From the NCBI GenBank assembly GCA_963666215.2, contig CAXWPL010000004.1:96001-160000 (forward strand): a stretch of 64,000 nucleotides of DNA. The letters run 5' to 3'. The position numbers were made by a program, and so were the translations under genes. The notes beneath the pieces were generated by a model. It was not told where the DNA came from. It searched no databases and was given only the letters and a program-made list of their open reading frames with translations. Of this stretch, positions 11,703-60,239 are shown one piece after another (positions within the stretch are counted from its first letter, which is position 1; the number at the start of each line of letters is the position of its first letter). Origin of the DNA: Acidobacteriota bacterium (lineage in GTDB: Bacteria > Acidobacteriota > UBA890 > WLXD01).

Positions 11703-11734
11703 TCGGATCTAGAGAATCGGATCTAGAGAATCGG
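11703..11734. repeat. 14-bp tandem duplication spanning the mutase stop codon
   Basis: TCGGATCTAGAGAA twice, then TCGG. Confidence 0.8.
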
Positions 11735-13396
11735 GACCTCGTCGTAGGTTCCCCAGACGTTGCGCAACGCGCCGCAGATGTCACCGACCGTGCAATCGGC
11801 CTCGACGGCGTTGATGATCGGGTAGACCGTGTTGTCGCCTCCTCGTGCCGCCGCCTCGACGTGAGAAAGCGCCTCGGACACACGCGCGGCGTCGCGGCGC
11901 GCCTTGAGATCTTTGATTCGGGCCACGATGCGCTCCTGGCCCGCCGGATCGACCTCGAACACCGGGATCTCGACCTTCTCGGACGACACGAACCGGTTGA
12001 CGCCGACGACCACGCGCTCCTCGCTCTCCACTTGCATCTGGTAGCGATAGGCCTGGTCGGTCAGCGCGCGCTGAAACCAGCCGCTCTCGATGCATCCGAG
12101 CGCTCCGCCACGCGTTTCGATCTCGTCGATGCACTGCCAGACGCGGCGCTCGATCTCGTCGGTGAGATGCTCGACCGTCCATGAGCCACCGAGCCCGTCG
12201 ATCACATCGGTAACGCCGGTCTCGTGTGCGATGATCTGCTGCGTGCGCAATGCGAGGGTCGCCGCGTCCTCGGTGGGAGTGGCGAAGGCCTCGTCGAAGG
12301 CCGTGGTGTGCAGCGTGTTGACGCCACCCAGCGCCGCCGCGAGCCCCATCAGCGCCACCCTCACGATGTTGTTCAGCGGCTGTTGCGCCACCAGGCGACC
12401 ACCGAGGGTGAACCCGAAGATCTTCAGGGCCATCGCCTGCGGATCTTCGGCGCCGTAGCGCTCCCGCATGAGCTTGGCCCACACGCGGCGCGCGGCGCGG
12501 AACTTCGCCACCTCCTCGAGAATCTGGATGTCGCTGGCGAGGAACGACCAGATGTTGGGCGCGAAGGTGTTGATGTCCACCCCACGCCGCACGGCCTCGT
12601 CGAAGTAGGCGATGGCGTTGGCGAAAGCGAAGGCGAGCTCCTGAACGGCCGTCGAGCCACTGTCGCGGATATGGTACCCGCTGATGGCCAGCGGCGTCCA
12701 GCTCGCCAGGCCTTCGCGGGCGCAGTACTCGATGACGTCGACGCTGTGTCGCAAGGATGGGGCCGGCGGGTAAATCTGCGTACCGCGGGCGATGTACTCC
12801 TTGAGCACGTCGTTCTGGATGAACAGCTTGATGTCGCGCGGATCCACTTCCTGCTTCTTGGCCATCGCTACGACCATGGCGGCGAACACGGGACCCATCG
12901 CGTTGGCTGTGGTTCGGATCTGCCGCACCTTGTCGAAGGGAATACCGGCGAAGAGGCTCACCATGTCTTCGAGCGACGCCAGGCTGACGCCCACCTTGCC
13001 CACCTCACCCTGGCTGATGGACGCATCGGGGTCGTAGCCGTTCTGCGTCGGCAGGTCGAGAGCCACCGAGAACCCCGTCTGCCCCTGGGCGAGGAGATGC
13101 CGGAAGCGCGCGTTGGTGTCGTCCGCCGACCCAAATCCGGAATACTGGCCGAAGATCCAGAGGTCCTGGCGGTACATGGCGGGATAGACGCCGCGCGTGA
13201 AGGGGTAGGCGCCGGGGAAACCCACCTTCTCGTCGCGATCCACCGCTTCGTCGAGCGCGTCGTGGAGCCGCTCCAGCGGTATGTCGCTGGCAGTGGCGAA
13301 GGCCTCCTTGCGTTCTCCTCGGCCCTCGAGGGCCGGGGCAAGAACCTCCTGCTCCCAGTCGGCTCTCGCCTCCTTCTGGCGTTTCCGATCGCTCAT
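11723..13396 (-). CDS. B12-dependent acyl-CoA mutase, large substrate-binding subunit (methylmalonyl-CoA mutase family)
   Basis: [55 protein letters not shown]; no DxHxxG domain. Confidence 0.88.
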
Positions 13397-13453
13397 CGGG
13401 CTACGACCTCCCCTCGACACTCGACGACGTTAACGCCGCGACCAGCATGCCAC

Positions 13454-15013
13454 TCAAACCTGCCGCTCGCGATCCCGCCAGTGAGGCTCGCGCAACTTCT
13501 TCTTGAGAATCTTGCCCGCCGGGCTCTTGGGAAGCTCGTCCACGAGCTCAACCGCCCTCGGCAGCTTGTAGCTCGCGAGGAGTCCGCGGCAGTGCTCGGT
13601 GAGCTCCTTCGGGCTCGCCGCCCGGTCGGGCTTGAACGCCACGACTGCCGTGACCCTCTCCCCCCATTCGCGGTCGGGCACTCCGATGACGGCGCACTCC
13701 GCCACTGCCGGGTGTCGGTACAACACCTCCTCGACCTCCCGTGGATAAACGTTGTAGCCGCCCGAGATGATCATGTCCTTCTTGCGGTCGACAATGAAGA
13801 GGTAACCCCCGGCATCGATCGTCGCCAGGTCGCCGGTCGAGAACCAGCCGTCTCGTAGCACCTCCGCGGTGGCTTCCGGCTGGTTCCAGTAACTGGCCAT
13901 CACGTGATCGCCGCGGATGAGCACCTCGCCGATCTCGCCGGCAGCAACCTCGTCGCCGGTCTCGTTGACCACCCTGACGTCGACGCCGATACAGGGACGG
14001 CCAGCGCTGGCCAACCGCCCCATTTGTTCGGGCGTCCCGTCCACCACATGGTCTTCTTTGGCCAGCGCCGTCGCCGGCTGCGGGGCCTCGCTGAGGCCGT
14101 ACACCTGGACGAAGACCGGCCCGAACGTCTCGATCGCTTCGCGCAGCCGCTCCGCCGGCATGGGCGCGCCCGCATAAACGATCGTGCGGAGGCTCGAAAG
14201 GTCGTACTGGGATCGATCGGGAAAGTCCAGGAGCCTGCCAATCAGCGTCGGCACCAGCCAGGTGGTGGTCACCCGGTGACGCTCGATGGCCTCGCAGTAG
14301 CTAGCCATGCTGAACTCGGGCAAAAAGACGTTGGTAGCGCCCTTGACGTAGTGGGTGAACACCTTGGTGCCGCTGCCGTGGGCCAGCGACGCAACGTGGA
14401 GCATGACGTCGGTCGAGTGGACGAAGTCCTCGTTGGCATACACCGTGAACGTCGAGACCCATCGCGACCGCACCGTCGTCATCGCGCCCTTGGGCCGGCC
14501 GGTGGTGCCCGAGGTGTACAGAATCATGTAGGGGTCTTCCATCTCGGTGGCGACGTGGGAGGGCTCGGGATCACCTGCCGCGACGATCTCGTTCCAGCCG
14601 AGGAACCCGGCGGGCGCGTCGTCGACGGCAACGAGATGGCGGACCGGCGTGGCCTGCGAGCGAATGCGCTCGATTACCTCGGCGAACTCGCCACCGTAAA
14701 TCAGCGCCGCCATTCCCGAGTCCTCGACGATGTAGGCGATCTCGGGGGGCGCCAGCCGCGGGTTGATCGGCACGCGCACCAGCCCGGCCTTGATCAGCGC
14801 CCAATCGGCGATGGTGAACTCGGGTCGATTCGGCAGGATGATGCCAACACGGTCGCCCTTGGCCAGCCCGAGGTCACCCGACAACACTTGTGCCAGGCGA
14901 TTCGACTCCGCCTCGATCTCGGCGAACGTCGCCTCGCGTCTACCCCAGATGATCGCCGTTTTCGCCGCGTGGTTGCGGCCGGCTCGCGACAGCAGGTCGG
15001 CGAGACGGTTCAT
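13454..15013 (-). CDS. AMP-forming acyl-CoA ligase
   Basis: YTSGTTGRPKG, YGLSE, TGD, DRKKDMIISGG, SPAGKI. Confidence 0.9.
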   Translation of the reverse strand: MNRLADLLSRAGRNHAAKTAIIWGRREATFAEIEAESNRLAQVLSGDLGLAKGDRVGIILPNRPEFTIADWALIKAGLVRVPINPRLAPPEIAYIVEDSGMAALIYGGEFAEVIERIRSQATPVRHLVAVDDAPAGFLGWNEIVAAGDPEPSHVATEMEDPYMILYTSGTTGRPKGAMTTVRSRWVSTFTVYANEDFVHSTDVMLHVASLAHGSGTKVFTHYVKGATNVFLPEFSMASYCEAIERHRVTTTWLVPTLIGRLLDFPDRSQYDLSSLRTIVYAGAPMPAERLREAIETFGPVFVQVYGLSEAPQPATALAKEDHVVDGTPEQMGRLASAGRPCIGVDVRVVNETGDEVAAGEIGEVLIRGDHVMASYWNQPEATAEVLRDGWFSTGDLATIDAGGYLFIVDRKKDMIISGGYNVYPREVEEVLYRHPAVAECAVIGVPDREWGERVTAVVAFKPDRAASPKELTEHCRGLLASYKLPRAVELVDELPKSPAGKILKKKLREPHWRDRERQV

Positions 15014-15035: not shown

Positions 15036-15854
15036 CTAGCACATGAAGCGGCCACCGTTGGCGTCGATGACCGTTCCGGTGATGTAGCGGGACCCTGGTC
15101 CCGCGAGAAAGACGACCACCTCGGCCTGCTCCTCGGCGCTCGACAGCCGCCCGAGAGGGATCGTGCTCAAGGTCTCCTGCTGCTGCGCCGGCGTCAGCTC
15201 GTTCCATAGATCGGTCATTCTCTCGCCGCTGAGAACCGTCCCGGGCGCGGTCGCATTGACGTTGATGTTCCACTCACCGGTCTCCTTTGCCAGGCGGCGA
15301 GTCAGGCCAATCAGCCCGGCCTTGGCGGCGGCGTAGGGCACGCCCGTGACGATGCTGGCCGTGCGGCCACCGATCGACGAGATGTTGATGATCCGCCCAC
15401 CGCCGAGCTCGCGCATGACGGGCACTACCGCCTGACAGAAGAGGAACGCCCCCTTCAGGTTGACGTCGAGGACGAGATCCCAGTGGCTCTCCTCGATCTC
15501 GTCGAGGTTCTTAGGGGTGTACAGACTGCCCCCGGCGTTGTTCACCAGGATGTCGACGCGCCCCAGCCGCTCGCGCACCTGCGACACCGTTTCACGTACT
15601 TGCGGGGGCTCGCGCACGTCGCAGGAGATGCCCACAAAACGCCTTTGCGGCACCGCCGCCGCGAGCTCCACCGCAGCCGCATCGAGGCCTTCCCGATCGA
15701 CATCGACGATCGCCACGTCGGCACCGGCCTGAGCCATCGCCCTCGCGAATGCGCGCCCCAGGCCGCCGGCACCGCCCGTCACGATGGCCACCTTGCCGCC
15801 CAGGGTCGCTGCCGTTCCGCCCTTGTTGGAATCCGAAACAACCGGTTCGTTCAT
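15036..15854 (-). CDS. Short-chain dehydrogenase/reductase
   Basis: TGGAGGLG, NNAG, YAAAK. Confidence 0.9.
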   Translation of the reverse strand: MNEPVVSDSNKGGTAATLGGKVAIVTGGAGGLGRAFARAMAQAGADVAIVDVDREGLDAAAVELAAAVPQRRFVGISCDVREPPQVRETVSQVRERLGRVDILVNNAGGSLYTPKNLDEIEESHWDLVLDVNLKGAFLFCQAVVPVMRELGGGRIINISSIGGRTASIVTGVPYAAAKAGLIGLTRRLAKETGEWNINVNATAPGTVLSGERMTDLWNELTPAQQQETLSTIPLGRLSSAEEQAEVVVFLAGPGSRYITGTVIDANGGRFMC

Positions 15855-17959
15855 GGCGAAGCCCTTCCCGTCAACAGAGCGTCTACGACCCGCGCCCCTT
15901 CGCCCGCCCCGAGCACCACGACTGGGTTGAGGTCGAGCTCCCACTCGCCCGCAGCGGAAGCCGCGAGCTCAGACACGCTCACGATCAGTGAAACCAGGGC
16001 ATCGAGATCCGCGGGGCCGCGGCCCCGCACGCCGCGCAGCAGCGCCATTGATCGCAGCTCAGACACCATGGCCTCGGCCTCCTGCCGATCGACCGGCACC
16101 AAGCGCATCGCGGTATCTCGAAGCACCTCGACGAGAACGCCGCCGGCACCCACGGTGATCATCGGCCCAAACTCCGAGGGGACAACTCCAATGAGCATCT
16201 CGACGCCGCCCGACACCTGCTCTTGCACCAGCACCCCGCTGATGCGAGCGCCGGGCACGAGCGCGCGGACCGACGCCACCACATCGCCATAAGCCGTGGC
16301 CACGTCGTCGGGGCCATGCAGGTCGAGAGTAACGCCGCCCACCTCGGTCTTGTGCAGGATGTCCGGAGACTCGATCTTGAGCGCCACCGGGTAGCCGATG
16401 TCGGCGGCCAGCGCCACGGCGGCTTCGGCCGACTCAGCCAGTCCTTCTCTCGTCACCGGTAGGCCGTGTTGCCCCAGAATCTCCTTTGCGACTCGCTCGC
16501 TGAGCGACTCCCCCGGCGCCGGGAATCCGGCCGGCGGCTCGCCGGCAGCCGCAGTGTGCTCGCCGGTTCCTGAACCGTCGCGCACCCGCTGGAAGTGAAC
16601 GAGTGCAGCGATCGCCCGTACCGCCTGCACCGAGGTCTCGAAAACCGGGATGCCGGCCGCGAGCAGGCTCGGCCGTGCCTCGGGAGCTAGCGAGTCGGCG
16701 CCGGTCTTGGAGAACAGCACCGGCTTGTCGGTTTCGGCGGCGGTCTGCAGCACATCCTCCACAACACGCAGCGCCGAGTCTCCCGTGAGCACACAAACGG
16801 AGCACAGCAACAGGTCGACTCCCGGGTCAGCCGCCATCAAACCGATGCAGCGGCGAAACAGCTCGCGGTCGGCGATGACCTGGGCGGTCACATCCACCGG
16901 GTTGAGGACGGAGCCGAACCAGGGAACGATCTCCTGCAGTTGCGCCCGCGTGTCGTCACCGAGTACGGCGACCTCGAGTCCGAAGTCGGCGCACGCGTCG
17001 GCTGCCATGACACCGGCGCCTCCCGAGGTCGTCAGGATGCCGACCCGGTTGCCCTTCGGCCGGCGTGGCTGCCGCAGCGTCGCCGCAACATCGAGCAGAT
17101 GGTCGACGTCGTCGACACGGACGATGCCCAGCTGTCGACAGACCGCGGAGAGAACCTCGTCGTCGCCGGCAAGGGCCGCGGTATGCGATGCCGCCGCGCG
17201 ACTTCCCACCTCGGAGCGACCAACCTTGAGCATGACGATAGGCTTGTCGCGCTGCAGCGCCAGTCGCGCCAGCGCGGGCCACTCGTCTGCCTTCTGCAAG
17301 CCCTCGCTGTACACCAGCACAACACGGGTGACGTCGTCGAGCAGCAGGTCACGAACCGCTTCGAGCGAGCTGAACGCCGCCTCGTTGCCGGTGTTGAGGA
17401 CGCGGCTGAATCGCAGGCCGCGATCCAGTGCCAGGCTGACGATCCCGTACCCGAGGGCGCCAGACTGCGACACCAGACCGATCTCGCCGGGCCGCCATTC
17501 GGCCTTCGCGAACAGCGGGCTGAAGCCGGCGACAAGGTTGAAGTGCGGGTTGACGAGACCAATGCAGTTGGGCCCGATGAGCCGTAGCCCCCCGGCCTCG
17601 GCCAGGCCGATCAGCTCGCGCTGACGGCGCTCGCCCTCGGCGCCCGACTCGGCGAATCCGGAGGCGAGCACCACAGCAAACCCGACGTTCTTCGCGGCGC
17701 ACTCTTCGATGACCCCTGGCACGTGGTCGGCACCGACCATGACCAGAGCCAGATCGACCGGTCCGGGACAATCGGCCACCGACGGATAGCAGCGATAGCC
17801 CAGCACCTCCTCGGCCCGCGGATTGACGGGGAGAATGTCGCCGCCATAGCCGTTGTCACGCAGGTAGCGCACCGGCGCCTGACCCATCGAGCCGGCGCGG
17901 CCCGACGCGCCGATCACCGCCACACCGCGAGGCTCCCAGAGACGTCGCAGACCGCTCAC
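15851..17959 (-). CDS. ADP-forming acyl-CoA synthetase (acetate-CoA ligase family, fused alpha/beta)
   Basis: IGAS, GPNCIG, SQSGA, AASHTAALAG phospho-His, HKTEVGGV ATP-grasp, LDLNP. Confidence 0.9.
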   Translation of the reverse strand: MSGLRRLWEPRGVAVIGASGRAGSMGQAPVRYLRDNGYGGDILPVNPRAEEVLGYRCYPSVADCPGPVDLALVMVGADHVPGVIEECAAKNVGFAVVLASGFAESGAEGERRQRELIGLAEAGGLRLIGPNCIGLVNPHFNLVAGFSPLFAKAEWRPGEIGLVSQSGALGYGIVSLALDRGLRFSRVLNTGNEAAFSSLEAVRDLLLDDVTRVVLVYSEGLQKADEWPALARLALQRDKPIVMLKVGRSEVGSRAAASHTAALAGDDEVLSAVCRQLGIVRVDDVDHLLDVAATLRQPRRPKGNRVGILTTSGGAGVMAADACADFGLEVAVLGDDTRAQLQEIVPWFGSVLNPVDVTAQVIADRELFRRCIGLMAADPGVDLLLCSVCVLTGDSALRVVEDVLQTAAETDKPVLFSKTGADSLAPEARPSLLAAGIPVFETSVQAVRAIAALVHFQRVRDGSGTGEHTAAAGEPPAGFPAPGESLSERVAKEILGQHGLPVTREGLAESAEAAVALAADIGYPVALKIESPDILHKTEVGGVTLDLHGPDDVATAYGDVVASVRALVPGARISGVLVQEQVSGGVEMLIGVVPSEFGPMITVGAGGVLVEVLRDTAMRLVPVDRQEAEAMVSELRSMALLRGVRGRGPADLDALVSLIVSVSELAASAAGEWELDLNPVVVLGAGEGARVVDALLTGRASP

Positions 17960-18495
17960 CCGGAGATTTCCGGCGCTTGGGGCGCTTCAGGCCCCGTGCG
18001 AGCCGCGTCGTCGTTGCCGTCAGCCGCCGCCCGCGCCTCGGGCCCCGCCCCAGGAGCAGCGTCGTCGTTCGTGTGCGCCGCGGCCGGCGCCTGAGGACTG
18101 AACTTGAACCCATAACGCACGACACCTTCTTCGTCGTACAGACGACGCACCTGCGCTCTGACTGGCGTGCCTATGGTCGGCTCTCCGATGCCGTCCGTCA
18201 GCTGAGCCGTGATCTTGGGTCCCTCCGCCAGCTCGACAATCGCAACGTGGTAGCCGCCCTGACGGCGGGCCTGCTCGGCGAATTCCGGAGGCGCCCCGGC
18301 GGGAGTGATGCGCGTCACTGCCAGGATCTCCCCACGCCCGGAAAGCACCATGGCCTGCAGCACGCCGCCGCAATCCCGGCAGCCGCCAACAGGGGGAAAG
18401 AAGACCCTCTCGCAGCCTGTGCAACGCCGGCCCTCGAGGCAGAGGCGCTGCGACAGGCTGCGTCGATACATGGGAACGGAGACATGGGCGCCCAC
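17956..18495 (-). CDS. DUF35 Zn-ribbon/OB-fold protein
   Basis: CTGC..FFPP..CRDC, IVELAEG, RRL...G.VRYGFKF. Confidence 0.88.
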   Translation of the reverse strand: MGAHVSVPMYRRSLSQRLCLEGRRCTGCERVFFPPVGGCRDCGGVLQAMVLSGRGEILAVTRITPAGAPPEFAEQARRQGGYHVAIVELAEGPKITAQLTDGIGEPTIGTPVRAQVRRLYDEEGVVRYGFKFSPQAPAAAHTNDDAAPGAGPEARAAADGNDDAARTGPEAPQAPEISG

Positions 18496-18497
18496 GA

Positions 18498-19502
18498 TCA
18501 GATCTCTCCGCGGAGCTTCAAGTAGGTCAGGTAGTCAACATCGGTGGCCGCGGCGAGGGAGCGCGCCAGCACCCCCTGACCCGACTCCGGGCCGGCGACC
18601 AGGCTAATCGCGTCGGCCGCCGAACCACTGCCGTGGCCGAGCAGGAGGATCCGATCCCCGGGATGGGCGGCATCGAGAGCCGCAACCAACTCCAGGAGCG
18701 GCTGCGCGGCGCCGACGTTGGCGGTTTCGGGGAAGGCACGCGCCGGCCGCCACTGGTCGTCCCGCAGCTCGAGGGCGCGAGCCGCTGCACTCGCGAGTCG
18801 GGGATGCGGAGCGTTCATCGCCACGAAGCGGTACTCGGCAAGCTCGCGGCCCAACACCCGCAGCAGCCCGGCGGTCGCCCCACCCATAGCGGCCGTATAG
18901 GCATCCGCGGCGTAGTCCGGCACCTGCACATCGCGCCGGCGCTCGTCGTCTGCCCGGGTGAAATCGAGCCCGGGATCCTCGGCCACGAAACTGGAGACCG
19001 CCTCGACGGAGGCGACGGCACCGTTCTCTTGAAGCACGAATGCCGCGGCGCCCGCTCCCATGAGCGCGTCGCTGCCGGCACGCGCCGATCCGCTAGCGAC
19101 CTCCGAGGCCACGACCAGGGCCACGCCGCCCGCGGCGTGTTGGGGCGCCGGCGAGCCCGCCACCGCGAGCGCCGAGATGAAGGCCTCGGTGCCCGCGCGG
19201 TCGGAAGTCGTGCACTCGACGGTGAACGGGCTGCTGCCAAGGCGGAGCGCGTGCGCCAGCAGCCCCGCCTGGACCTTGTGACGATAGGGAAGGCTGGTGG
19301 AAGCCAGTGCCAGGACGTGCACTGGCGGAGCGGCAATGTCTGCCGCCGACGCCACTGCGAGGGTGAGCGCATCCTCGTCGAGCCCAGCCACGCGCTTGCC
19401 CTTCAATCCGGGAATCGCGGGCCCCCAGGCGCGAGACAGCTCCTCGGCAGAAAGTCGGTGAACCGGGAAGCGACAACCGTAGGCCGCGATGCCGAGAACC
19501 AT
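18498..19502 (-). CDS. HMG-CoA synthase/FabH-fold protein lacking catalytic residues (PhlA-like)
   Basis: GIAAYG..P..RL, DEDALTLAV, GAGAAA, GHGSG..AD; catalytic Cys position reads TSDRAGT. Confidence 0.75.
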   Translation of the reverse strand: MVLGIAAYGCRFPVHRLSAEELSRAWGPAIPGLKGKRVAGLDEDALTLAVASAADIAAPPVHVLALASTSLPYRHKVQAGLLAHALRLGSSPFTVECTTSDRAGTEAFISALAVAGSPAPQHAAGGVALVVASEVASGSARAGSDALMGAGAAAFVLQENGAVASVEAVSSFVAEDPGLDFTRADDERRRDVQVPDYAADAYTAAMGGATAGLLRVLGRELAEYRFVAMNAPHPRLASAAARALELRDDQWRPARAFPETANVGAAQPLLELVAALDAAHPGDRILLLGHGSGSAADAISLVAGPESGQGVLARSLAAATDVDYLTYLKLRGEI

Positions 19503-20726: not shown

Positions 20727-20730
20727 CGAG

Positions 20731-20748
20731 TTCTACTAACCAGTCAAC
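20731..20748. promoter_or_regulatory. Putative operator 1 (thiolase-mutase operon)
   Basis: TTCTACTAACCAGTCAAC; matches the shared palindrome. Confidence 0.7.
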
Positions 20749-20898: not shown

Positions 20899-20916
20899 AC
20901 TTACCCGCGAGTTGAT
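20899..20916. promoter_or_regulatory. Putative operator 2 (symporter operon)
   Basis: ACTTACCCGCGAGTTGAT; overlaps a GATACT -10-like hexamer. Confidence 0.55.
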
Positions 20917-21002: not shown

Positions 21003-21122
21003 ATGACCCCCTTGCCCCACTGGATTTTCCTGTTCGGGACCATGATCGTTTACTTCATCATTGGGTTCGTCGTCTACGCCTTCTACGGTCGTGCAGGCCG
21101 CGGCTCTGGAGGCGACCGATGA
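21003..21122 (+). CDS. 39-aa single-pass membrane protein, probable symporter small subunit
   Basis: MTPLPHWIFLFGTMIVYFIIGFVVYAFYGRAGRGSGGDR; ATGA overlap with the symporter; absent from the ORF track. Confidence 0.7.
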   Translation: MTPLPHWIFLFGTMIVYFIIGFVVYAFYGRAGRGSGGDR

Positions 21123-49421: not shown

Positions 49422-49533
49422 TACGGAAGCCTCAGCCGGTGGGGCAGGCTTCACGGGCTCCCAAAGCCCCACGCTTGTTCCTCGCCGCTGCAAGACCACC
49501 GACCCGGCACGAACGCGTAGAGTGTACTCCAAC

Positions 49534-49552
49534 TTTGACTCTCCAGTACAAT
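49534..49552 (+). promoter_or_regulatory. Putative operator 10 overlapping a TACAAT -10 box
   Basis: TTTGACTCTCCAGTACAA(T). Confidence 0.65.
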
Positions 49553-53150: not shown

Positions 53151-54377
53151 TCACCTCGACAATGAGCCCGGATCCTGTTCCAGGTACTCGCGCAGCTGGC
53201 CCACGAACGCCAGCGCCTGCGCGCCATCAACGACACGGTGATCGAAGGTGAGCGACACCGGGAGCACGGGGCGCGCCACCACTGATCCGTTCTCCACGAC
53301 CGCACGATCGACGATGCGTCCGAGACCGAGAATCGCGACCTCCGGGGGCCGGATCAGCGAGGTGCCATAGTGGCCACCGGCAGGACCCACATTACTGATC
53401 GTGAAGGTCCCGCCGCGCATATCCTCCGGCGTCAGCTCGTGCTGCTCGGCAGCGTCGCAGAGACGCTGAATCTCCACACCAATCTCGAAGAGATCGCGAC
53501 CGTCTGCCCGTTTCACGACCGGCACGACCAGGCCCTCCGACGACGACACGGCGATGCCGATGTCGCGGGCTTTCTTCAGCACGATCATCTCGCGCGACTC
53601 GTCGAGTGAAGCGTTCAGCCAGGGGTGCTGCCGCAGCGCCAGGGCGACGGCCTTCACCACGAAAGAGAGGTACGTCAGCTTGACGCCACGCGACTCCGCC
53701 TCGGGCTTCAGACGCTCGCGCTCGGCAACCAGCCGGCCGACTACGAACTCGTGGAACCCGGCAACGTGCGGGATTTCTCTGTACGACTTGGCGAGGGTCT
53801 CCGCGACACGGCGCCGGATGCCTCGCAGGGGCACCTCTTCGTCTGCGGTGACCGCCGCAACTGCCGTGTCGCCCGCCGCAGCGGCGGCAGCGCTCCCCGA
53901 GAGCGAGTCGAAATGGCGCTGGACGTCCTCCGGGAGGATCCTTCCCCGCGGGCCGGATCCCGGCACTGCCGTCAGATCCACCCCTAGCTCCCTGGCAAGC
54001 CGGCGCGCCGAGGGCGCGGCAGGCACGTTGCCGGCCGGGGCCCCGGCAGCGGTCTCGAGGGGCGGCGCGGCGACGTTTGCGGCGGCGGTTCCAGCGGCCG
54101 GCGCGCCGGCGTCGGCAGTATCGGCGGTGCCCGGATCGGCGACGTCCATCACCAGTAACAGGTCACCCACCGGCACCCGCTCGCCCACCGCGGCAGCCAG
54201 GTGGACGATCCGTCCGGTGGCGGGTGCCGGCATCGACACGATCGACTTGTCGGTTTCGATGTCGGCGATCTCCTGGTTCTCTTCGACCCAGTCGCCGACG
54301 GCGATCTTCCATTCCGAGACCTCGACCTCAGCCAGACCTTCACCGACGTCGGGCATGTGGAATTCGAACTTCGCCAT
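53151..54377 (-). CDS. 2-oxoacid dehydrogenase E2 (dihydrolipoamide acyltransferase)
   Basis: Lipoyl ETDK, A.PSARRLARE binding domain, DHRVVDG. Confidence 0.92.
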   Translation of the reverse strand: MAKFEFHMPDVGEGLAEVEVSEWKIAVGDWVEENQEIADIETDKSIVSMPAPATGRIVHLAAAVGERVPVGDLLLVMDVADPGTADTADAGAPAAGTAAANVAAPPLETAAGAPAGNVPAAPSARRLARELGVDLTAVPGSGPRGRILPEDVQRHFDSLSGSAAAAAAGDTAVAAVTADEEVPLRGIRRRVAETLAKSYREIPHVAGFHEFVVGRLVAERERLKPEAESRGVKLTYLSFVVKAVALALRQHPWLNASLDESREMIVLKKARDIGIAVSSSEGLVVPVVKRADGRDLFEIGVEIQRLCDAAEQHELTPEDMRGGTFTISNVGPAGGHYGTSLIRPPEVAILGLGRIVDRAVVENGSVVARPVLPVSLTFDHRVVDGAQALAFVGQLREYLEQDPGSLSR

Positions 54378-54380
54378 GGC

Positions 54381-55364
54381 TCAGACCTGCGTCGCTTTCT
54401 CGATCCCCGCGAGCACGCGGGCCTCGTCGATCAAGTACTGGGGCTCCAGCATCTGCACGGGATAGGGCGTGTCGGGTCCGCAAACGCGGACGAGCGGTCG
54501 ATGCAGCGCGAAGAAAGCGTCCTCGTTCTCGAGAATCGTGGCAATCACCTCGCCGGCGAATCCAGCGGTCTTGGAGGCCTCGTGGACGATCACTCCGCGG
54601 CCCGTTTTGGCCACGGACGCCCAGAGAGTCTCCGCATCGAGCGGCACCAGGGTCCGCAGATCGATCACCTCAACCGAGATGCCGCGCTGCGCGGCGGTTT
54701 CCGCGGCCGCCGTCACGACCTCCACCGCGGCGCTCCAGGCGATCACGGTGCAATCGGTGCCCTCGCGCACAACGCGCGCTTTGCCCAGCGGCACGAGGTG
54801 CTCTCCGTCGGGAACCTCTCCTCGGATCAGCCGGTATCCACGCAACGGCTCGATGTAGATCACCGGGTCGGGGTCGCGCACGGCGCTCGCCAGCAGTCCC
54901 TTGGCGTCGGCGGGGTTGGACGGAGCCACCATCTTCAGCCCGGGTGCGTGGGCGAGGTGGGCCTCGAAGGAATCGGAGTGCATCTCCGGCGCTCGAACGC
55001 CGCCGCCGCACGGCATGCGCAGGGTCACCGGGGCCGAGAGGCTGCCCCACGACCGGTAGCGCACGCGGGCGAGCTGCTCGACGATCTGATTGAAGGCGTT
55101 GTGGGTGAATCCCATGAACTGGATCTCCGCCACTGGCACCATGCCGGCGATCGCCAACCCCACCGCGGCGCCGACGATGGCGCCCTCCGCCAGCGGCGTG
55201 TCGACAACCCGAGCCGATCCGAACCGCTCCTGGAGCCGGTCTGTGGCGCGGAACACGCCGCCCGACTGACCGACGTCCTCACCCAGGATCATCACCCGCT
55301 CGTCGCGCTCCATCTCGGCTTCCAGAGTCGACCGGATCGCCTCCACCATGGTCATGTCGGACAT
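54381..55364 (-). CDS. 2-oxoacid dehydrogenase E1 beta subunit
   Basis: GEDVG..GGVFR.T, DTPLAE, EIQF.GF, HS.S.EA, DLRTL.PLD. Confidence 0.92.
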   Translation of the reverse strand: MSDMTMVEAIRSTLEAEMERDERVMILGEDVGQSGGVFRATDRLQERFGSARVVDTPLAEGAIVGAAVGLAIAGMVPVAEIQFMGFTHNAFNQIVEQLARVRYRSWGSLSAPVTLRMPCGGGVRAPEMHSDSFEAHLAHAPGLKMVAPSNPADAKGLLASAVRDPDPVIYIEPLRGYRLIRGEVPDGEHLVPLGKARVVREGTDCTVIAWSAAVEVVTAAAETAAQRGISVEVIDLRTLVPLDAETLWASVAKTGRGVIVHEASKTAGFAGEVIATILENEDAFFALHRPLVRVCGPDTPYPVQMLEPQYLIDEARVLAGIEKATQV

Positions 55365-55366
55365 CG

Positions 55367-56440
55367 TCACATCCCCCGCGGCGAGGGAAGAGCAGATACG
55401 TGCCGCAGGCTCTCCTCGAGACTCGGCGGTGCTTCGGCCTGTGCTTCCGCCCACGCCGCCTCGAGCTGCGCGTTGATCTCCTCCTCCATGGCGCGTTCGA
55501 TCTCGTCGTCCCACTTGCCCTTGCGCGCAAGGTAGCGCTGGATGCGGAACAGCGGATCCTTGGGCTCCCAGGTCGCCCGCAGCGCCGGGTCCTCGAACCG
55601 TGTGCCGGCATCGGCGGTGGTGTGGATGCCAAGACGGTAGGTAAAGCCCTCGATGAGAGTCGGGCCGTCACCGCGTCGCGCCCGCGCCACCGCGTCGCGC
55701 ATGACCTCGTAGACGGCAAACAGATCGTTGCCGTCAACCAGCACTCCCGGGAACCCGCAGGCCATGGCCTTGTGGGCCACGGTCGGAGCCGCGGTCTGCA
55801 GCGGTCGCGACGTCGAGATCGCCCAGTGGTTGTTCTGACAGAAGAAAATGACCGGCGCCTTGCTCACGCCGGCGAAGTTCGCAGGCTCGTAGAAGTCCCC
55901 GTGCGAGCTGGCGCCCTCGCCGAAGTGCACCACCACAACATCATCTCGGCCGCGCAACCTCAATCCCCACCCCAGCCCGACTGCGTGTGAGATCTGCCCA
56001 GCAACCGCTGCCTGAAAGGGCAGCATCCGGAGCCCCTCCGGAATGTGGAAGCCGAGAGGGCTGCCCATGTGCCAGAGATATCCACGCACCAGAGCAAAGC
56101 CGTGGAGGAATTGTCCGGCGGCCTCGCGATACTGGGGCACGAACCAGTCCCGCTCGGGCTCCACGGCCATCACGCTCCCAACACTGCAGGCCTCCTGGCC
56201 GATGCCAGGGGCAAAGGTCACCATCAAGCCGCGTCGCTGGAGCTTGATGCAGTGCTCGTCAAAGCGCCGCCCCAGCATCATCGCGCGCAGCCCGGCGAGG
56301 GCTTCGTCGTCGGTGAGGGGTGGTGTATCGACCAGGAGGTTGCCGTCGGTGTCGAGCACCGAGTAAGGCTCCGGCACATCCTCTGGTGTGATCTCGAGAA
56401 CCCGGTATCTCGTCGTCTTCAGCATCGCCTTCTTCCCCAT
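55367..56440 (-). CDS. 2-oxoacid dehydrogenase E1 alpha subunit
   Basis: GQEA, YRE, GEGASS..NN ThDP motif, TYR..HTTAD. Confidence 0.9.
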   Translation of the reverse strand: MGKKAMLKTTRYRVLEITPEDVPEPYSVLDTDGNLLVDTPPLTDDEALAGLRAMMLGRRFDEHCIKLQRRGLMVTFAPGIGQEACSVGSVMAVEPERDWFVPQYREAAGQFLHGFALVRGYLWHMGSPLGFHIPEGLRMLPFQAAVAGQISHAVGLGWGLRLRGRDDVVVVHFGEGASSHGDFYEPANFAGVSKAPVIFFCQNNHWAISTSRPLQTAAPTVAHKAMACGFPGVLVDGNDLFAVYEVMRDAVARARRGDGPTLIEGFTYRLGIHTTADAGTRFEDPALRATWEPKDPLFRIQRYLARKGKWDDEIERAMEEEINAQLEAAWAEAQAEAPPSLEESLRHVSALPSPRGM

Positions 56441-56503: not shown

Positions 56504-57430
56504 TCAAGCATCGAGCGTCGCAATGATCTCGCGGCCGAAAGCGTGGACGAGCTCCACGTGCTGCTCCGCGGTCTCGTGCTCGAACTGGCACACGAAGTCG
56601 GTCGCCCCGAGATCCCGGTAGCGCCGCAGGAAGGCCCGTATCTGAGCAAAGGACCCGCGACACCCTATCTCCGACTCGCCTCCCATGTAGTGCCCTTCTA
56701 CACCGTCTCCGTGACGTGCGATTCCAGTCGCCTCGAACAGGTCGACGCTGAAACGAACCGTCGCCGCCAACGCCTTCTCACCACGACCCTTCGCTAGCCG
56801 ATTCATGCGTTCCACGGCGCGGCCGAAATCGTCCGGCATGACCTCGTCGCCATGCCAACCATCGCCGAGCAGGCCCGCACGCCGCACGGCAGCCGCCGAG
56901 TTGCCACCGATCCAGATCGGCGGTCCGCCCGGCTGTGAGGGCTTGGGCTCGAACAGCGCCTCACCGTAGTGGTAGAACTCACCCTGGAAGCGAGGCCGCG
57001 CCTCGGTCCAGAGGTTCCTGAGCACGCCGATGGACTCGTCCAGCAGACGCCCGCGCTGGTGGAAGGGCGCGCCGACGAAATCGTACTCCTCCTCGTTCCA
57101 GCCGACCGCCACGGCGACGATCAAGCGCCCCGGGGCGAGGGCGTCGAGCGTCGCCAGCTGCTTGGCGGCCAGCACCGCATTCCGCATCGGCAGCACCAGC
57201 ACCGACGTCCCGATGCGGATCCTGTCGGTATGCGCGGCTACCCAGGTCAGCGTCACAAGGCTCTCGTAGACGTTCCCGTAGCGCGGGTGCTCGGGACCGA
57301 CCAGAATATGGTCGGTCGTCCAGATCGACGTGTACCCGGCCTGCTCCGCCGCCTGCGCGACACCGAGAATGTGTTCCGCCGACGGATTCGCACCATATTT
57401 GAAGTTGGGAAGCGCAACTCCGAAATCCAC
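56504..57430 (-). CDS. LLM-class, probably F420-dependent, oxidoreductase
   Basis: SIWTTDH, MRNAVLAAKQLATLD, VGWNEEEY, PIWIGG, GDGW. Confidence 0.88.
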   Translation of the reverse strand: MDFGVALPNFKYGANPSAEHILGVAQAAEQAGYTSIWTTDHILVGPEHPRYGNVYESLVTLTWVAAHTDRIRIGTSVLVLPMRNAVLAAKQLATLDALAPGRLIVAVAVGWNEEEYDFVGAPFHQRGRLLDESIGVLRNLWTEARPRFQGEFYHYGEALFEPKPSQPGGPPIWIGGNSAAAVRRAGLLGDGWHGDEVMPDDFGRAVERMNRLAKGRGEKALAATVRFSVDLFEATGIARHGDGVEGHYMGGESEIGCRGSFAQIRAFLRRYRDLGATDFVCQFEHETAEQHVELVHAFGREIIATLDA

Positions 57431-57492: not shown

Positions 57493-57510
57493 TTCGACTT
57501 TCCAGTTAAT
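57493..57510. promoter_or_regulatory. Putative operator 11
   Basis: TTCGACTTTCCAGTTAAT. Confidence 0.6.
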
Positions 57511-57627
57511 AGAAGATTGGCACGCTACGACGTCGATTCGATCGCTTACGATAGGCTGAACCGGGGCCGGAGGTGCGTGTTTCTCTTAGTCGATCCCGCG
57601 CGACTACAGTAGGTACTTTCGTCGCTG

Positions 57628-57656
57628 TTCGCGCAAGTTCAACCGGAAAGTAGAAT
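57628..57656 (+). promoter_or_regulatory. Promoter TTCGCG-17-TAGAAT containing operator 12
   Basis: Operator TTCAACCGGAAAGTAGAA at 57638-57655. Confidence 0.65.
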
Positions 57657-57718: not shown

Positions 57719-58789
57719 GTGGGACCCAAGCTAGGAGCATCCGTCGCCCTCACGGGGCCAGAGGCCGAGTATGGGGCCCAGCTCCGCGTGGTCATCGAGC
57801 TAGCCCTGGCGGACGCCGGCCTGCCGGGTGTGGAGCTCGAGGTCGTCGACGACGCATCAGATCCGACGCGCGCCGTGCAGGCGGCCGAAGCATTGATTGA
57901 CGATCCTGCTGTTGTTGCCGTGGTAGGCCCGATGAACTCCTGGACCTGTGCCGTTCAGGCGCCGCTGTTCCACCAGGCGGGTCTGCAACACATCACGAAC
58001 TCGGCGTCGGCTCCGGAGCTTTCCAGGGGCGGTTGGCAGACCTTCCGGCGAATGTGCCCTGCCGACGACCTTCAGGGAGACGTGCTCGCGGCGGTAGCTC
58101 ATCGGCTCGTCGAGGCAAAGCGGGTGGCGGCGATTCACGACTGTACGAGCTTCGCCGAGCCGCTCGTGGACCGCTTCTCTGAGCGTGCCGGCGAGCTCGG
58201 GCTCGAGGTCGTACCGGCCGTCGGCATGACGCCCGGCCAGGTGCCCGATGTTCTGCTGGAACCACTCGTCGCACGGCGGCCACAGGCGCTGCTGATCGCC
58301 GGCCTGGAGGAACCGTGCCGGGTCGCCGCGCAAGCCATGCGCAGACTCGGCAGCGATGCCGTCTTGCTCGGCACCGATGCCATCAAGCCCACCCGAGTGC
58401 TCGTCACCGACGGGCCCTACGAGGGCCCGTACCTGACCTGTTCAACCGCCAATGCAGCGAGCGTGGCGCCGCTGCTCGATGCACGCATCCGCGAGCGCCA
58501 CGGACGCCACGACTCGATCTACACCGTGGAGGGATACGACGCGACGCGGATGCTGCTCGAGGCGCTGAGACGAGCTCTCGCCGGAGCACAGCAAGGCGAT
58601 CAGCGCGACGACGATCTCAGGCGCCGCGTCGGGGTGGCGCTCGCCGGGCTCGACGACTTCGCCGGCGCCGGTGGCCCGATTCGCTTCGACGATCGCGGCG
58701 AACGTCTCAACCCGATCGTTTCCATCTACCGCCAAGAGGGATCCGAGCTCCGCTATCTCGGAACCGCCGACGACATCGTGCCGTTGTGA
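57719..58789 (+). CDS. LivJ/LivK-fold ligand-binding protein without signal peptide
   Basis: KLG....LTG, DDASDP, VVGP.NS, FRR....D.QG, YDA, I.FD..G; AAGGAG RBS before GTG. Confidence 0.8.
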   Translation: MGPKLGASVALTGPEAEYGAQLRVVIELALADAGLPGVELEVVDDASDPTRAVQAAEALIDDPAVVAVVGPMNSWTCAVQAPLFHQAGLQHITNSASAPELSRGGWQTFRRMCPADDLQGDVLAAVAHRLVEAKRVAAIHDCTSFAEPLVDRFSERAGELGLEVVPAVGMTPGQVPDVLLEPLVARRPQALLIAGLEEPCRVAAQAMRRLGSDAVLLGTDAIKPTRVLVTDGPYEGPYLTCSTANAASVAPLLDARIRERHGRHDSIYTVEGYDATRMLLEALRRALAGAQQGDQRDDDLRRRVGVALAGLDDFAGAGGPIRFDDRGERLNPIVSIYRQEGSELRYLGTADDIVPL

Positions 58790-59526
58790 GGTCGGGCTTG
58801 GAGGGGCTCCAGGCGCTGGTCACTGGTGGCGGCCGGGGGATCGGACTGGCGATCGTCCGCGAGCTGGCAGCACGCGGTGCACGCGTCGTCGCCGGCGACC
58901 TTCCCGCCGTTCTCGAAACCTGGCCGGGAGTCGACGGCGCCGTGCCGATGGTGCTCGACGTCACCAGCGAGGCGGGGCGCGGCGCGGTTGTCGATGAGCT
59001 CGCCAAGCAACCCGGGCACCTCGACATCCTGGTGAACAACGCCGGCGTTCACCTCGATCGGCCGCTCGAAGCGGTCACCGACATGGACTGGAATCGCGTG
59101 CTGTCGGTTAACCTGCAGGGTGTCTACTTCCTTTGCCAGGCAGCGTTGCCACTGCTGCGGGCCACAGCCTCGCCGGCGATCGTCAACCTCGCCAGCACGT
59201 CGGCCTACGTTGGCTCTCCCGGCCAATCGGTGTACGAAATCTCCAAGGCCGGGGTCGTCATGCTGACCCGGTCGCTGGCGCTGGAGCTCGCACCTTGTGG
59301 GGTACGTGTCAACGCCGTCGCACCGGGGCTCATCGACACCGACATGTCCCAATCGTTGTTCCCAACACCCGAGGCAATGCGAGACCGCGCCCGAGACAAC
59401 GTCCCGATCGGCCGACCAGGGGAACCCGCCGAGGTGGCCCGAGCGGTAGCGTTCCTGGCGTCGCCGGACGCCAGCTACGTGGTCGGCCACACACTGCTGG
59501 TTGATGGTGGCTGGATGCTGCGATGA
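58786..59526 (+). CDS. Short-chain dehydrogenase/reductase
   Basis: TGGGRGIG, NNAG, YEISK, VNAVAPG. Confidence 0.9.
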   Translation: MRSGLEGLQALVTGGGRGIGLAIVRELAARGARVVAGDLPAVLETWPGVDGAVPMVLDVTSEAGRGAVVDELAKQPGHLDILVNNAGVHLDRPLEAVTDMDWNRVLSVNLQGVYFLCQAALPLLRATASPAIVNLASTSAYVGSPGQSVYEISKAGVVMLTRSLALELAPCGVRVNAVAPGLIDTDMSQSLFPTPEAMRDRARDNVPIGRPGEPAEVARAVAFLASPDASYVVGHTLLVDGGWMLR

Positions 59527-60239
59527 GCGTGCGAGGAGGAGGACACGGCACCATCGGCGGGTGCCTGATCGTGACGTTCATCGCGCTTTGGTCCACATCA
59601 GCACTCTCGTCGGCGGGACCGCTGACATCACGTCACCTCAGCGTGCCGCTCGACTCGAGCTCGTCGGGGTTCCTTACGTCAGTGACCGGGCTACAGTGCG
59701 ACAGTTGCCATGGTGTGCCGCCTGCGACCGGGGCCCATGCCGCGCACGCGGACTGGGATTCGTACGACTTCGGTTTCGACTGCAACAGCTGCCACTTTGA
59801 GACCTTCCCGCAGCTGCACGACGACGGCACCGTCGACGTGCGCCTCAGCCCCACGTTACCGACGATCGGCAACATCGGCGTCACGTACGGGAACGGCACC
59901 TGCTCCGACTCCTACTGTCACTCGGACGGCCGGGGCAAGGCCCGCGCCGTGAGCTGGAACGACGGCACGGTACTCGGTTGCGATGGCTGCCACGACTACC
60001 GCACCAGCCTCGAGATCGACATGTCCGGGAACCACCAGTTTCATCTGAACTCGGGGGTCGAATGTGCCGCGTGCCACGCCGAGATCGTCAACGTGGCCGA
60101 TCTCGTCACTGAGTTTCCGCGGCACGTCGACGGCACGGTGGATGTCGCGGTTCTCGCCGGCGACTATGACGCTGGCACGGCGTCGTGCCAGAACGGATGT
60201 CACGAAACGCGCGTGTGGCCATCCGGCGGCCGGCCTTGA
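59523..60239 (+). CDS. Small multiheme cytochrome c with CxxxxCH/CxxCH motifs
   Basis: Signal peptide; CDSCH, CNSCH, CSDSYCH, CDGCH, CAACH, CQNGCH. Confidence 0.82.
   Translation: MSVRGGGHGTIGGCLIVTFIALWSTSALSSAGPLTSRHLSVPLDSSSSGFLTSVTGLQCDSCHGVPPATGAHAAHADWDSYDFGFDCNSCHFETFPQLHDDGTVDVRLSPTLPTIGNIGVTYGNGTCSDSYCHSDGRGKARAVSWNDGTVLGCDGCHDYRTSLEIDMSGNHQFHLNSGVECAACHAEIVNVADLVTEFPRHVDGTVDVAVLAGDYDAGTASCQNGCHETRVWPSGGRP

Follow-up and report, generated by a model that had tools for sequence, protein, structure and literature searches.

In a 64,000-nucleotide stretch of contig CAXWPL010000004.1 from an Acidobacteriota bacterium (hereafter the window), a block of about 40 genes at 11723..60239 contains a gene for the large subunit of a B12-dependent acyl-CoA mutase. 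Residue comparisons indicate that this protein is not a canonical methylmalonyl-CoA mutase (MCM) and that it belongs to a separate, uncharacterised and widespread subfamily, called QIRTTAN here. The genes found with it form a real, conserved and undescribed catabolic system, likely with a new mutase reaction. We give an even chance to the proposal that the mutase would convert a 4-oxoacyl-CoA into a 2-methyl-3-oxoacyl-CoA, followed by thiolysis to succinyl-CoA and propionyl-CoA. The open reading frames (ORFs) of the window were called by codon scoring and their proteins scanned with Pfam and NCBIfam profiles. All enzyme classes listed in an earlier sequence-only reading, which had described the block as an uncharacterised pathway island, were found there; the HMG-CoA-synthase-like (HMGS-like) and DUF35 genes that adjoin the SCP thiolase gene, and a frameshift in the TetR gene, were not listed in it, nor did it note that the window has no mutase B12-binding subunit, carboxyltransferase, acyl-CoA dehydrogenase or E3.

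The window mutase scores 596 bits against PF01642 and 578 bits against TIGR00641 (cut-off 304), and the closest solved structure is that of 2-hydroxyisobutyryl-CoA mutase (HCM; 4R3U, 508 bits). It shares family and barrel with MCM (1REQ) and HCM, and its large subunit is split as in HCM. In P. shermanii numbering, it keeps Y89, Q197, R207, Y243, H244 and F287 and differs from MCM by R87G, S164R, H328F, Q330F and N366T. S164R involves a one-residue insertion; its register was taken from the HCM alignment and a multiple sequence alignment, the pairwise alignment to 1REQ being off by one. A GTDB scan with search patterns, one of which includes R164, returned 181 relatives, of which the best 80 loci were analysed. 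G87, Y89, R164 and R207 are present in 120/120 protein matches (the best of 8,000, not chosen by motif) and in 81/81 aligned rows, and R87, S164, H328, Q330 and N366 are retained in none of these rows. The subfamily varies at position 328 (F or L), 330 (F, Y or M) and 366 (S, A, T or C), and positions 281, 283 and 329 differ among clades. In MCM, Y89 and R207 bind the substrate carboxylate. HCM has Ile and Gln at positions 89 and 207, where the window mutase has Tyr and Arg; ICM and PCM have a residue other than Tyr at 89 and Gln or Asn at 207. Membership in HCM, ICM or PCM was rejected on Tyr89 and Arg207. The genomic context also differs from that of MCM, the subfamily mutase being partnered by thiolase and CoA-transferase and not by an epimerase.

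Database entries for subfamily proteins bear only the name 'methylmalonyl-CoA mutase', and ESM Atlas returned generic mutase clusters only. None of the 25 best matches in a plasmid collection belongs to the subfamily, the top one being a canonical MCM (51% identity). In an AlphaFold model of the window mutase (pTM 0.78; mean pLDDT 73, with low values in 43-84 and 358-403), strands and helices alternate, and the changed residues 161, 327 and 329 map to predicted strands of the barrel. A quick tree groups the window mutase with those of loci L001 and L002 (SH-aLRT 99). Cultured carriers of the subfamily are Neobacillus novalis, Oleispirillum naphthae and Patulibacter defluvii, and Ca. Formimonas warabiya (L041/L044) has two copies about 11.6 kb apart. 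The B12-binding subunit is encoded inside the flanks in 31 of the 80 loci (in L008, L029 and L038, for instance, next to or not far from the mutase gene) and outside in 49; its supply from elsewhere in the genome therefore looks common.

The 80 loci span Acidobacteriota, Chloroflexota, Bacillota, Synergistota, Actinomycetota, Atribacterota, Pseudomonadota and others. Presence was counted with tblastn markers (at least 35% identity and at least 40% coverage, within the fetched flanks), preferred because gene calls fell in shadow frames in about 10 GC-rich loci; 73 of the 86 protein clusters present in at least three loci were annotated, plus 138 further proteins. A thiolase is encoded in the flanks of 68/80 loci, nine of the 12 loci without one being short (4.2-13.3 kb), so that the carbon-skeleton rearrangement followed by thiolysis that the sequence-only reading had suggested is strongly supported by context. 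A family III CoA-transferase is present in 51/80 loci and in none of the 18 that have a FadD-type ligase, while a classic partner thiolase and an SCP-type thiolase occur together in one of 16 loci; these displacement counts and the Fisher tests on them take no account of relatedness or contig truncation. The FadD-type ligase thus takes the place that the family III CoA-transferase has elsewhere. From the thiolase and CoA-transferase counts and the displacement patterns, it follows that the conserved core consists of activation (by CoA ligase or CoA-transferase), rearrangement by the B12 mutase, and thiolysis, the window having the FadD/SCP version. Because an acyl-CoA dehydrogenase homologue is found in just 2/80 loci and no acyl-CoA dehydrogenase/ETF in the window (CaiA tblastn, 0 matches), beta-oxidation is not used by the pathway.

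The earlier reading had called for a synteny check, and the genes are indeed co-located in other phyla. The seven-gene operon scpThl-hmgsL-duf35-acd-sdr1-fadD-mut is found in the same order in 5/80 loci, all from Bacillota (L001, L002, L004, L005 and L038), and E1a/E1b/E2 orthologues (65-69, 69-73 and 50-56% identity) lie directly 5' of the mutase in five more (L003, L006, L007, L019 and L051). SDR1 orthologues (54-72%) lie near the mutase in 12/80 loci. The Formimonas loci run on into genes for succinyl-CoA synthetase, Sdh, fumarase, malic enzyme and an mmdA-like carboxyltransferase (CT), and some other loci carry PrpR-like regulators. In seven loci (e.g., L015 4609-4938; L003 1486-1815), the aminotransferase gene is preceded by one for a conserved 109-aa protein that matches neither Pfam nor NCBIfam profiles.

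The operon also encodes a thiolase trio, whose adjacent genes represent the three families of PhlABC and of the archaeal thiolase/HMGCS/DUF35 complex (5M3K, 6ESQ). Aligned to 6ESQ, the HMGS-like protein has other residues where the archaeal enzyme has its catalytic Glu, Cys and His; PhlA lacks these too, and the protein is therefore probably a scaffold. The catalytic Cys is missing also in its five closest homologues; the domain is fused to DUF35 in L029 and in many database matches, and it has no match in the plasmid collection. Synthesis of HMG-CoA for the mevalonate pathway, as in archaea, was rejected on the replaced catalytic residues. In spite of the PhlA-like subunit, the SCP thiolase scores 257 bits with archaeal SCP thiolases and 107 bits with PhlC, and the context is catabolic; a Friedel-Crafts acylase of the PhlABC type was rejected on these scores. 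Together with DUF35, the SCP thiolase resembles benzoylsuccinyl-CoA thiolase (PDB 7PXP match). SCP-type thiolases prefer 2-methyl-branched substrates.

Two upstream modules accompany the core in related loci. The aryl module, in 29/80 loci, is defined by a short OYE, by a ligase (DHB-AMP-ligase-like or of the benzoate-CoA-ligase family), or by both. A BadI/MenB-like or PRK07327 crotonase is encoded in 25 of the 29 loci, and some also carry a PcaK-like transporter, Rid or PaaX. The count of 18 for the 'ECHbadI' marker includes L043, L045 and L076, which are not BadI-like by NCBIfam. A monooxygenase matching the N-terminal half of salicylyl-CoA 5-hydroxylase is encoded in L004 (E 1e-125) and L056 (1e-134). 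The product of that hydroxylase is given as gentisyl-CoA (PMC4600096), and a putative cyclohexanedione-carboxyl-CoA is reported as detected in anthranilate-grown Arthrobacter (PMC3534580). The AtuA module, with AtuA and/or AtuA-ferredoxin, is found in 13/80 loci, none of which has the aryl module. These loci mostly add carboxyltransferase, biotin carboxylase (BC), MaoC, hydratase and a second thiolase, and are often fed by an aminotransferase with E1/E2, IOR or POR. On the mutase tree, the branches from aryl and AtuA contexts are intermingled. TctABC uptake genes are present in 7/80 loci. Another seven-locus type (L050, L053, L055, L064, L068, L070 and L074, soil Dormiibacterota-type), defined by proline racemase, ornithine cyclodeaminase (OCD), luciferase-like monooxygenase (LLM) and HpcH genes, has several LLMs and homologues of the first two enzymes around the mutase; judging from this gene content, it would be a distinct cyclic imino-acid entry branch. 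In the Peptococcaceae locus L042, a split PEP-synthase-like pair lies 3' of an aryl-type mutase operon (17401-21222); it is a candidate for hydroquinone activation and resembles phenylphosphate synthase.

In the pathway model, the genes, operator motif, synteny, residue signature and displacement patterns are observed, and all substrates and reactions are inferred. In the aryl route, salicylate, gentisate or anthranilate would pass through 2,5-dioxocyclohexanecarboxyl-CoA, which a BadI-like hydrolase would convert to 4-oxopimelyl-CoA, by the ring-hydrolase chemistry described for BadI (PMC13689101). In the AtuA route, (4-oxocyclohexylidene)acetyl-CoA would undergo carboxylation, hydration, cleavage by an AtuA-type ring-cleaving lyase and the action of a second thiolase, giving again 4-oxopimelyl-CoA. 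The AtuA-like ThnQS is stated to convert 1-hydroxy-2-carboxycyclohexylacetyl-CoA to 3-oxoazeloyl-CoA, and the thiolase ThnV to convert the latter to pimeloyl-CoA (PMC12016498, cited there as unpublished results). Since the 4-oxo analogue of the ThnQS/ThnV substrate gives 4-oxopimelyl-CoA, the two modules converge on paper. This compound would not be cleavable by beta-oxidation, its ketone being one carbon too far for thiolysis. By shifting the thioester from C2 to C3 in an MCM-type 1,2-shift, the mutase would yield 2-methyl-3-oxoadipyl-CoA, and the SCP-thiolase/HMGS-like/DUF35 complex would then split it into succinyl-CoA and propionyl-CoA. SDR1 would interconvert 4-hydroxy and 4-oxo forms and the ADP-forming ligase would recover ATP from the product thioesters. 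It can be proposed, tentatively and at less than even probability, that the QIRTTAN subfamily is a new class of acyl-CoA mutases, acting on 4-oxoacyl-CoA, on which a central pathway so far unrecognised would hinge in many phyla, among aerobes and strict anaerobes alike. Gentisate, salicylate, anthranilate and oxidised or ring-reduced tyrosine derivatives would converge on 4-oxopimelyl-CoA, whose cleavage would give succinyl-CoA and propionyl-CoA; neither ring-cleaving dioxygenases nor an ATP-dependent benzoyl-CoA reductase would be needed, and the window would be the F420-assisted amino-acid entry branch.

Several observations weigh against the pathway model. The salicylyl-CoA-5-hydroxylase-like monooxygenase occurs in just 3/80 loci. 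The short OYEs score 178-231 bits against BaiCD/mycofactocin models and 116-147 against the reductase half of PRK08255. All eight BadI-like crotonases tested fall under the BadI cut-off and score equally to the ring-forming MenB, one of them (L029) being over the MenB cut-off, and to take the PRK07327 crotonase for a ring hydrolase is a guess. Anaerobic gentisate breakdown, as published in PMC3727088, proceeds by reductive dehydroxylation. Judged from the residues, the retained Y89 and R207 may suit a malonyl-type substrate no less well than they would a ketone. Many window genes are only 33-45% identical to those of the related loci, near family background, and the SSS, M24, MFS, VPS10, FG-GAP, TPR, SnoaL and cytochrome proteins have no half-length homologue in the 80 loci. 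Finally, profile scans and tblastn markers found no mutase B12-binding subunit, carboxyltransferase, AtuA, E3 or ring hydrolase in the window, so that a self-contained pathway is not supported.

Retention of the carboxylate-binding pair raises the question of whether carboxylation comes first. A 4-oxoacyl-CoA would then be carboxylated at C2 to a (2-oxoalkyl)malonyl-CoA, rearranged by the mutase to a 2-acylsuccinyl-CoA and split by a BbsAB-like thiolase into succinyl-CoA and an acyl-CoA, 4-oxopimelate giving two succinyl-CoA. Y89 and R207 are invariant, as in carboxylate-binding mutases, carboxylase genes are found near the mutase (BC in 11, Atu-type CT in 12 and mmdA-like CT in 10 of the 80 loci), and the likeness to benzoylsuccinyl-CoA thiolase noted above would suit this order. 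However, the flanks of 20/29 aryl-module loci contain no carboxyltransferase, none of the five loci with the seven-gene operon carries one, and the Atu-type CT, where present, travels with AtuA and the hydratase; we regard this order as unlikely. Scarcely more probable is that the mutase acts on another dicarboxyl- or 4-hydroxyacyl-CoA (2-methylglutaryl-type or 4-hydroxypimelyl-CoA), the modules feeding unrelated substrates and their convergence being coincidental. SDR1 orthologues could oxidise a hydroxy product, the TctABC loci import an undefined acid, and positions 281, 283 and 329 are clade-dependent. Nevertheless, many core operons consist of mutase, CoA-transferase and thiolase without an SDR, and the mutases of aryl and AtuA contexts fall in one well-supported, short-branched clade.

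Two further explanations have little left in their favour. The block could be a rearranged branched-chain amino acid cluster, with leucine/liu genes and an ordinary methylmalonyl- or isobutyryl-CoA mutase: the E1/E2, BC and biotin carboxyl carrier protein (BCCP), LiuC-like hydratase and thiolase are all liu-like, and a canonical MCM lies beside a BCKDH operon in the Brevibacillus locus L081. This is largely refuted and hardly credible, since the E1a of the window is 36% identical to the Brevibacillus BCKDH and 65-69% to mutase-adjacent E1a proteins, and since its mutase differs from that of L081 at R87, S164, H328, Q330 and N366. Moreover, the liu pathway for leucine and isovalerate shares with the window a biotin carboxylase and a methylglutaconyl-CoA-hydratase-type crotonase (under equivalog cut-offs), but was rejected, its isovaleryl-CoA dehydrogenase and MCC carboxyltransferase being absent from the window, as is HMG-CoA lyase (Pfam/NCBIfam). 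The earlier suspicion that no known pathway matches one-to-one is thereby borne out. A non-canonical biosynthetic cluster, the alternative that had been offered, is highly improbable. The trio matches PhlA/PhlC and 6ESQ and could act as a PhlABC-like acyltransferase or archaeal thiolase/HMGCS, MenB-like crotonases form rings and the BadI-like neighbours score equally to MenB, and F420 LLMs and HemL-like aminotransferases are known from biosynthetic clusters. Yet the core is surrounded by importers (SSS, ABC, TctABC, PcaK-like) and secreted hydrolases, the thiolase resembles degradative and archaeal SCP thiolases far more than PhlC, and regulators near the mutase in relatives are of PaaX, PrpR-like and IclR types. 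Besides, an oestrogen-degradation cluster is described as holding a similar thiolase/HMGS-like pair (PMC7793797).

Known catabolic systems resemble parts of the set. The iaa operon of anaerobic indoleacetate breakdown, as described in PMC8360864, likewise combines a mutase (IaaGH, phenylsuccinyl/benzylmalonyl-CoA mutase), a family III CoA-transferase (IaaL), a CoA ligase and a thiolase for an aromatic compound. It requires the acyl-CoA dehydrogenase IaaF, missing in the window and in 78/80 loci, and was rejected on this absence; the mutase was not set against the IaaH sequence. The iaa members hydantoinase and Mo hydroxylase are also not in the window, and no Aromatoleum record is among the best 80 of the 181 loci. 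With the 2-aminobenzoyl-CoA monooxygenase/reductase and salicylyl-CoA 5-hydroxylase pathways, related loci share the hydroxylase half, OYE, Rid, aryl-CoA ligase and crotonase. They differ in having hydroxylase and OYE as separate genes and a mutase and thiolase in place of acyl-CoA dehydrogenase or gentisate dioxygenase, and the window itself carries none of the upstream genes of these pathways. The Atu/Liu system and the ThnL/ThnQS/ThnV ring cleavage of naphthalene breakdown are echoed in the window by BC/BCCP, a LiuC/AtuE-like hydratase and a second thiolase, and in 13 related loci by AtuA, AtuA-ferredoxin and CT; here, however, no acyl-CoA dehydrogenase is present, aminotransferase and E1/E2 or IOR/POR provide the feed, and the mutase follows. 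An Atu/Thn lyase module was rejected for the window, where the AtuA and AtuA-ferredoxin pair and CT are absent. Signature genes of the steroid C/D-ring, nicotinate and ectoine pathways are missing, and these candidates were dropped. A literature search, most subscription journals being outside it, found no description of a 4-oxoacyl-, 4-oxopimelyl- or levulinyl-CoA mutase, nor of this gene set.

Most of the proposed AtuA route is present in the window: aminotransferase, E1/E2, MaoC, BC/BCCP, LiuC-like hydratase, second thiolase, OYE, HpcH and F420 enzymes. This points, as a rather doubtful possibility, to a tyrosine-type amino acid, ring-reduced and 1,4-oxygenated, as entry substrate. Such cyclohexyl-alanine-type compounds arise from tyrosine oxidation. 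They or their bicyclic proline-like form, perhaps octahydroindole-2-carboxylate freed from peptides, would fit HpcH, which needs a 4-hydroxy-2-oxoacid, and MaoC, which without a dehydrogenase needs a ready 3-hydroxyacyl-CoA, as well as the ene-reductases, the PutP-like symporter and the Xaa-Pro-type peptidase; Choi is a moiety in aeruginosins. The cyclic N-containing substrate of the sequence-only reading is plausible for entry in the window, but a central place of nitrogen in the conserved core is not supported, as 29/80 loci carry aryl-CoA ligase/OYE genes. Genes of this kind are typical of hydroxybenzoate or anthranilate breakdown.

Near the mutase in the 80 loci, BC is found in 11, MaoC in 17, HpcH in 12, long OYE in 6, LLMs in 9, FMN oxidase in 2 and cofE/fno in 4. 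The long OYE is 43-45% identical to mutase-abutting genes and SDR3 42-45% to genes near the mutase, both in Chloroflexota; the FMN oxidase has counterparts of 42-43% identity close to the mutase of L055 and L074, and LLM 1 has one of 53% in L040. A distant homologue of DUF885 protein B lies near the mutase in L035, and the best matches of the classic thiolase are the extra thiolases of the AtuA-bearing L045 and L043 (42-43%). The plasmid collection gave family-level matches only for E1a, FMN oxidase, aminotransferase and OYE, the best being 38.5% for OYE and 35% for FMN oxidase; E1a is at most 47% identical to the best plasmid matches listed, compared with 65-69% for the mutase-adjacent orthologues. 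By the recurring operon and these near-mutase matches, the window combines a Bacillota-like core with a Chloroflexota-like upstream set. Binding-protein-fold proteins without a signal peptide are encoded near the mutase in the window (57719-58789, plus strand) and in L003, L015 and L040, and are possibly cytoplasmic sensors or enzymes.

The window genes are further linked by a palindrome, Y-D-A-C-Y-N4-R-G-T-H-R (TAC-N6-GTA-like), and the motif perceived in the sequence-only reading proved real. Of its 15 occurrences in the window, 11 are intergenic, in 2,600 bases, against a mean of 0.24 and a maximum of 3 in 2,000 shuffles; the pattern was derived from the same 11 sites on which it was tested, and leave-one-out scores are 11-22 bits. 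A matrix search adds a twelfth intergenic site at 49536. The palindromes precede most operon starts between 20.7 and 57.6 kb, and the left flank, with 1,196 intergenic bases tested, has none. They are likely operator-like sites of one TetR-controlled regulon, bound by the product of the TetR_C_24 gene at 43180-43804. Solved relatives of this regulator include AibR- and KstR2-type regulators, among them AibR (5K7F); regulators of these types sense CoA thioesters. The TetR gene is frameshifted in the window and intact (207 aa) in an 87%-identical relative; the split 143-aa form is present on nine contigs, close relatives being intact, and the frameshift may be either a sequencing error or a genuine lesion. 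In the latter case, the regulon may be constitutive. In L048, a motif site lies just 5' of a TetR_C_24 gene that neighbours a mutase of this type, which is treated as a lead; matrix matches in related loci being mostly weak or in AT-rich DNA, only L048 was used. Two matrix matches of 19-20 bits are found in the unrelated Brevibacillus locus L081 (14044 and 24595), and the motif may resemble those of other TetR regulators.

Composition is flat over the window, with a GC content of 0.655-0.677 across all segments and a tetranucleotide correlation to the left flank of 0.97-0.98. Rfam and tRNA scans of the window found nothing, and the scanned ORFs gave no integrase or transposase match. The block is therefore a regulon and not a recent genomic island. 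A general repeat search of the window yielded coding repeats only and did not pick up the operator motif, and a sigma-70 scan of 20600-21150 gave neither promoter nor terminator. Features of the block are collected in Table 1. The three LLMs score 240.7, 181.9 and 223.2 bits, over the TIGR03619 F420 cut-off of 166.9. Besides the SSS and MFS transporters, the block encodes several proteins with hydrophobic N-termini, and the 39-aa hydrophobic ORF is likely, by inferred role, a transporter accessory peptide.

Table 1. Genes and operator-like sites of the block (window coordinates).
Feature	Position	Strand	Basis
B12-dependent acyl-CoA mutase large subunit, QIRTTAN subfamily	11723..13396	-	PF01642, TIGR00641, residue comparison
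AMP-forming acyl-CoA ligase (FadD-type)	13454..15013	-	profile scans
SDR1	15036..15854	-	Pfam
ADP-forming acyl-CoA synthetase	15851..17959	-	profile scans
DUF35 protein (ChsH2 zinc ribbon + OB fold), thiolase partner	17956..18495	-	Pfam
HMGS-like protein, probable PhlA-like scaffold	18498..19502	-	alignments to 6ESQ and PhlA
SCP2-type thiolase (GHP motif and catalytic Cys present)	19503..20690	-	profile scans, alignment
Operator-like palindrome 5' of mutase operon	20733..20746	.	motif search
Operator-like palindrome 5' of SSS operon	20901..20914	.	motif search
39-aa hydrophobic ORF overlapping SSS start	21003..21122	+	translation
Sodium:solute symporter (SSS), best model PutP	21119..22612	+	313 bits, under 515 cut-off
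FMN-dependent alpha-hydroxyacid oxidase family	22650..23657	+	profile scans
Class III aminotransferase, HemL-like	23692..25056	+	profile scans, scores under cut-offs
M24 (Xaa-Pro aminopeptidase-like) peptidase, probably secreted	25169..26614	+	Pfam
CofE, F420-0:glutamate ligase	26625..27446	+	TIGR01916 over cut-off
MaoC-type dehydratase	27478..28011	-	Pfam
Two operator-like sites, maoC/FG-GAP intergenic region	28045..28088	.	motif search
Secreted FG-GAP/ASPIC-UnbV protein	28169..29884	+	Pfam
Secreted TPR protein	29881..31767	+	Pfam
DUF885 protein A, start uncertain	31731..33404	-	ORF call, Pfam
F420-dependent LLM 1	33497..34381	-	NCBIfam
MFS transporter (anion:cation symporter-like)	34433..35770	-	profile scans
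DUF885 protein B, secreted, HExxPGH metal-site-like motif	35758..37602	-	Pfam
Operator-like palindrome	37718..37731	.	motif search
Operator-like palindrome	37922..37935	.	motif search
SnoaL/NTF2-like exported protein	38058..38567	+	Pfam
Secreted VPS10/BNR beta-propeller hydrolase-like protein	38584..41760	-	profile scans
Operator-like palindrome	41889..41902	.	motif search
Operator-like palindrome 5' of bccp-sdr2-tetR-thl-fno-ech operon	41993..42006	.	motif search
BCCP	42049..42300	+	profile scans
SDR2	42362..43135	+	Pfam
TetR (TetR_C_24, KstR2/AibR-like), frameshift near 43355-43374	43180..43804	+	Pfam, homologue comparison
Classic thiolase	43848..45053	+	NCBIfam
Fno/NpdG, NADPH:F420 oxidoreductase	45050..45748	+	TIGR01915 over cut-off
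Crotonase, LiuC/AtuE (gamma-carboxy-enoyl-CoA hydratase) type	45816..46604	+	profile scans; under equivalog cut-offs
Long OYE (BaiCD/NCR/FadH architecture)	46598..48547	-	NCBIfam
HpaI-like 4-hydroxy-2-oxoacid aldolase (HpcH)	48544..49401	-	NCBIfam
Two operator-like sites (49406, 49536), hpcH/biotin carboxylase intergenic region	49406..49549	.	motif search
BC	49587..50942	+	profile scans
Membrane protein, weak LPG_synthase_TM match	51069..52064	-	Pfam
F420-dependent LLM 2	52061..53056	-	NCBIfam
E2 acyltransferase	53151..54377	-	Pfam
E1 beta	54381..55370	-	Pfam
E1 alpha	55367..56440	-	Pfam
F420-dependent LLM 3	56504..57430	-	NCBIfam
Two operator-like sites (57495, 57640), divergent promoter region	57495..57653	.	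motif search
Branched-chain-amino-acid-binding-fold protein without signal peptide	57719..58789	+	Pfam
SDR3	58798..59526	+	Pfam
Exported multihaem c-type cytochrome (CxxxxCH/CxxCH)	59523..60239	+	profile scans

Outside the block, the gene for a succinate dehydrogenase/fumarate reductase flavoprotein is broken into two frames (297-1750, plus strand), with an intact frdABCD-type operon directly 3' of it (2803-6169). An ECF sigma factor ORF (7981-8421, minus strand) has region 2 only, with no region 4 match, and is truncated or frameshifted; an ADOP permease gene also lies in the flank and would suit an Acidobacteriota-like host. On the other side, two PQQ-type beta-propeller dehydrogenases, of which one carries a cytochrome c domain, adjoin the regulon (60270-63946, minus strand). 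No motif site was seen for them; their upstream region extends past the window end.

B12-dependent acyl-CoA mutases are known for a small set of reactions, and annotation labels the whole subfamily as methylmalonyl-CoA mutase. If the model is right, the subfamily would add a new radical rearrangement, from a gamma-keto to an alpha-methyl-beta-keto thioester, and in engineering would let levulinate and other 4-oxo acids enter metabolism in one step. It would also give a fate to the cyclohexanedione-carboxyl-CoA observed in anthranilate breakdown, and a cheap anaerobic route for gentisate-type rings to bacteria of rumen, digester and sediment. The mutase probably rearranges a ring-cleavage product into a form that can be cleaved to ordinary metabolites, and would thereby supply a missing step in the bacterial breakdown of salicylate-, gentisate- and tyrosine-like rings.

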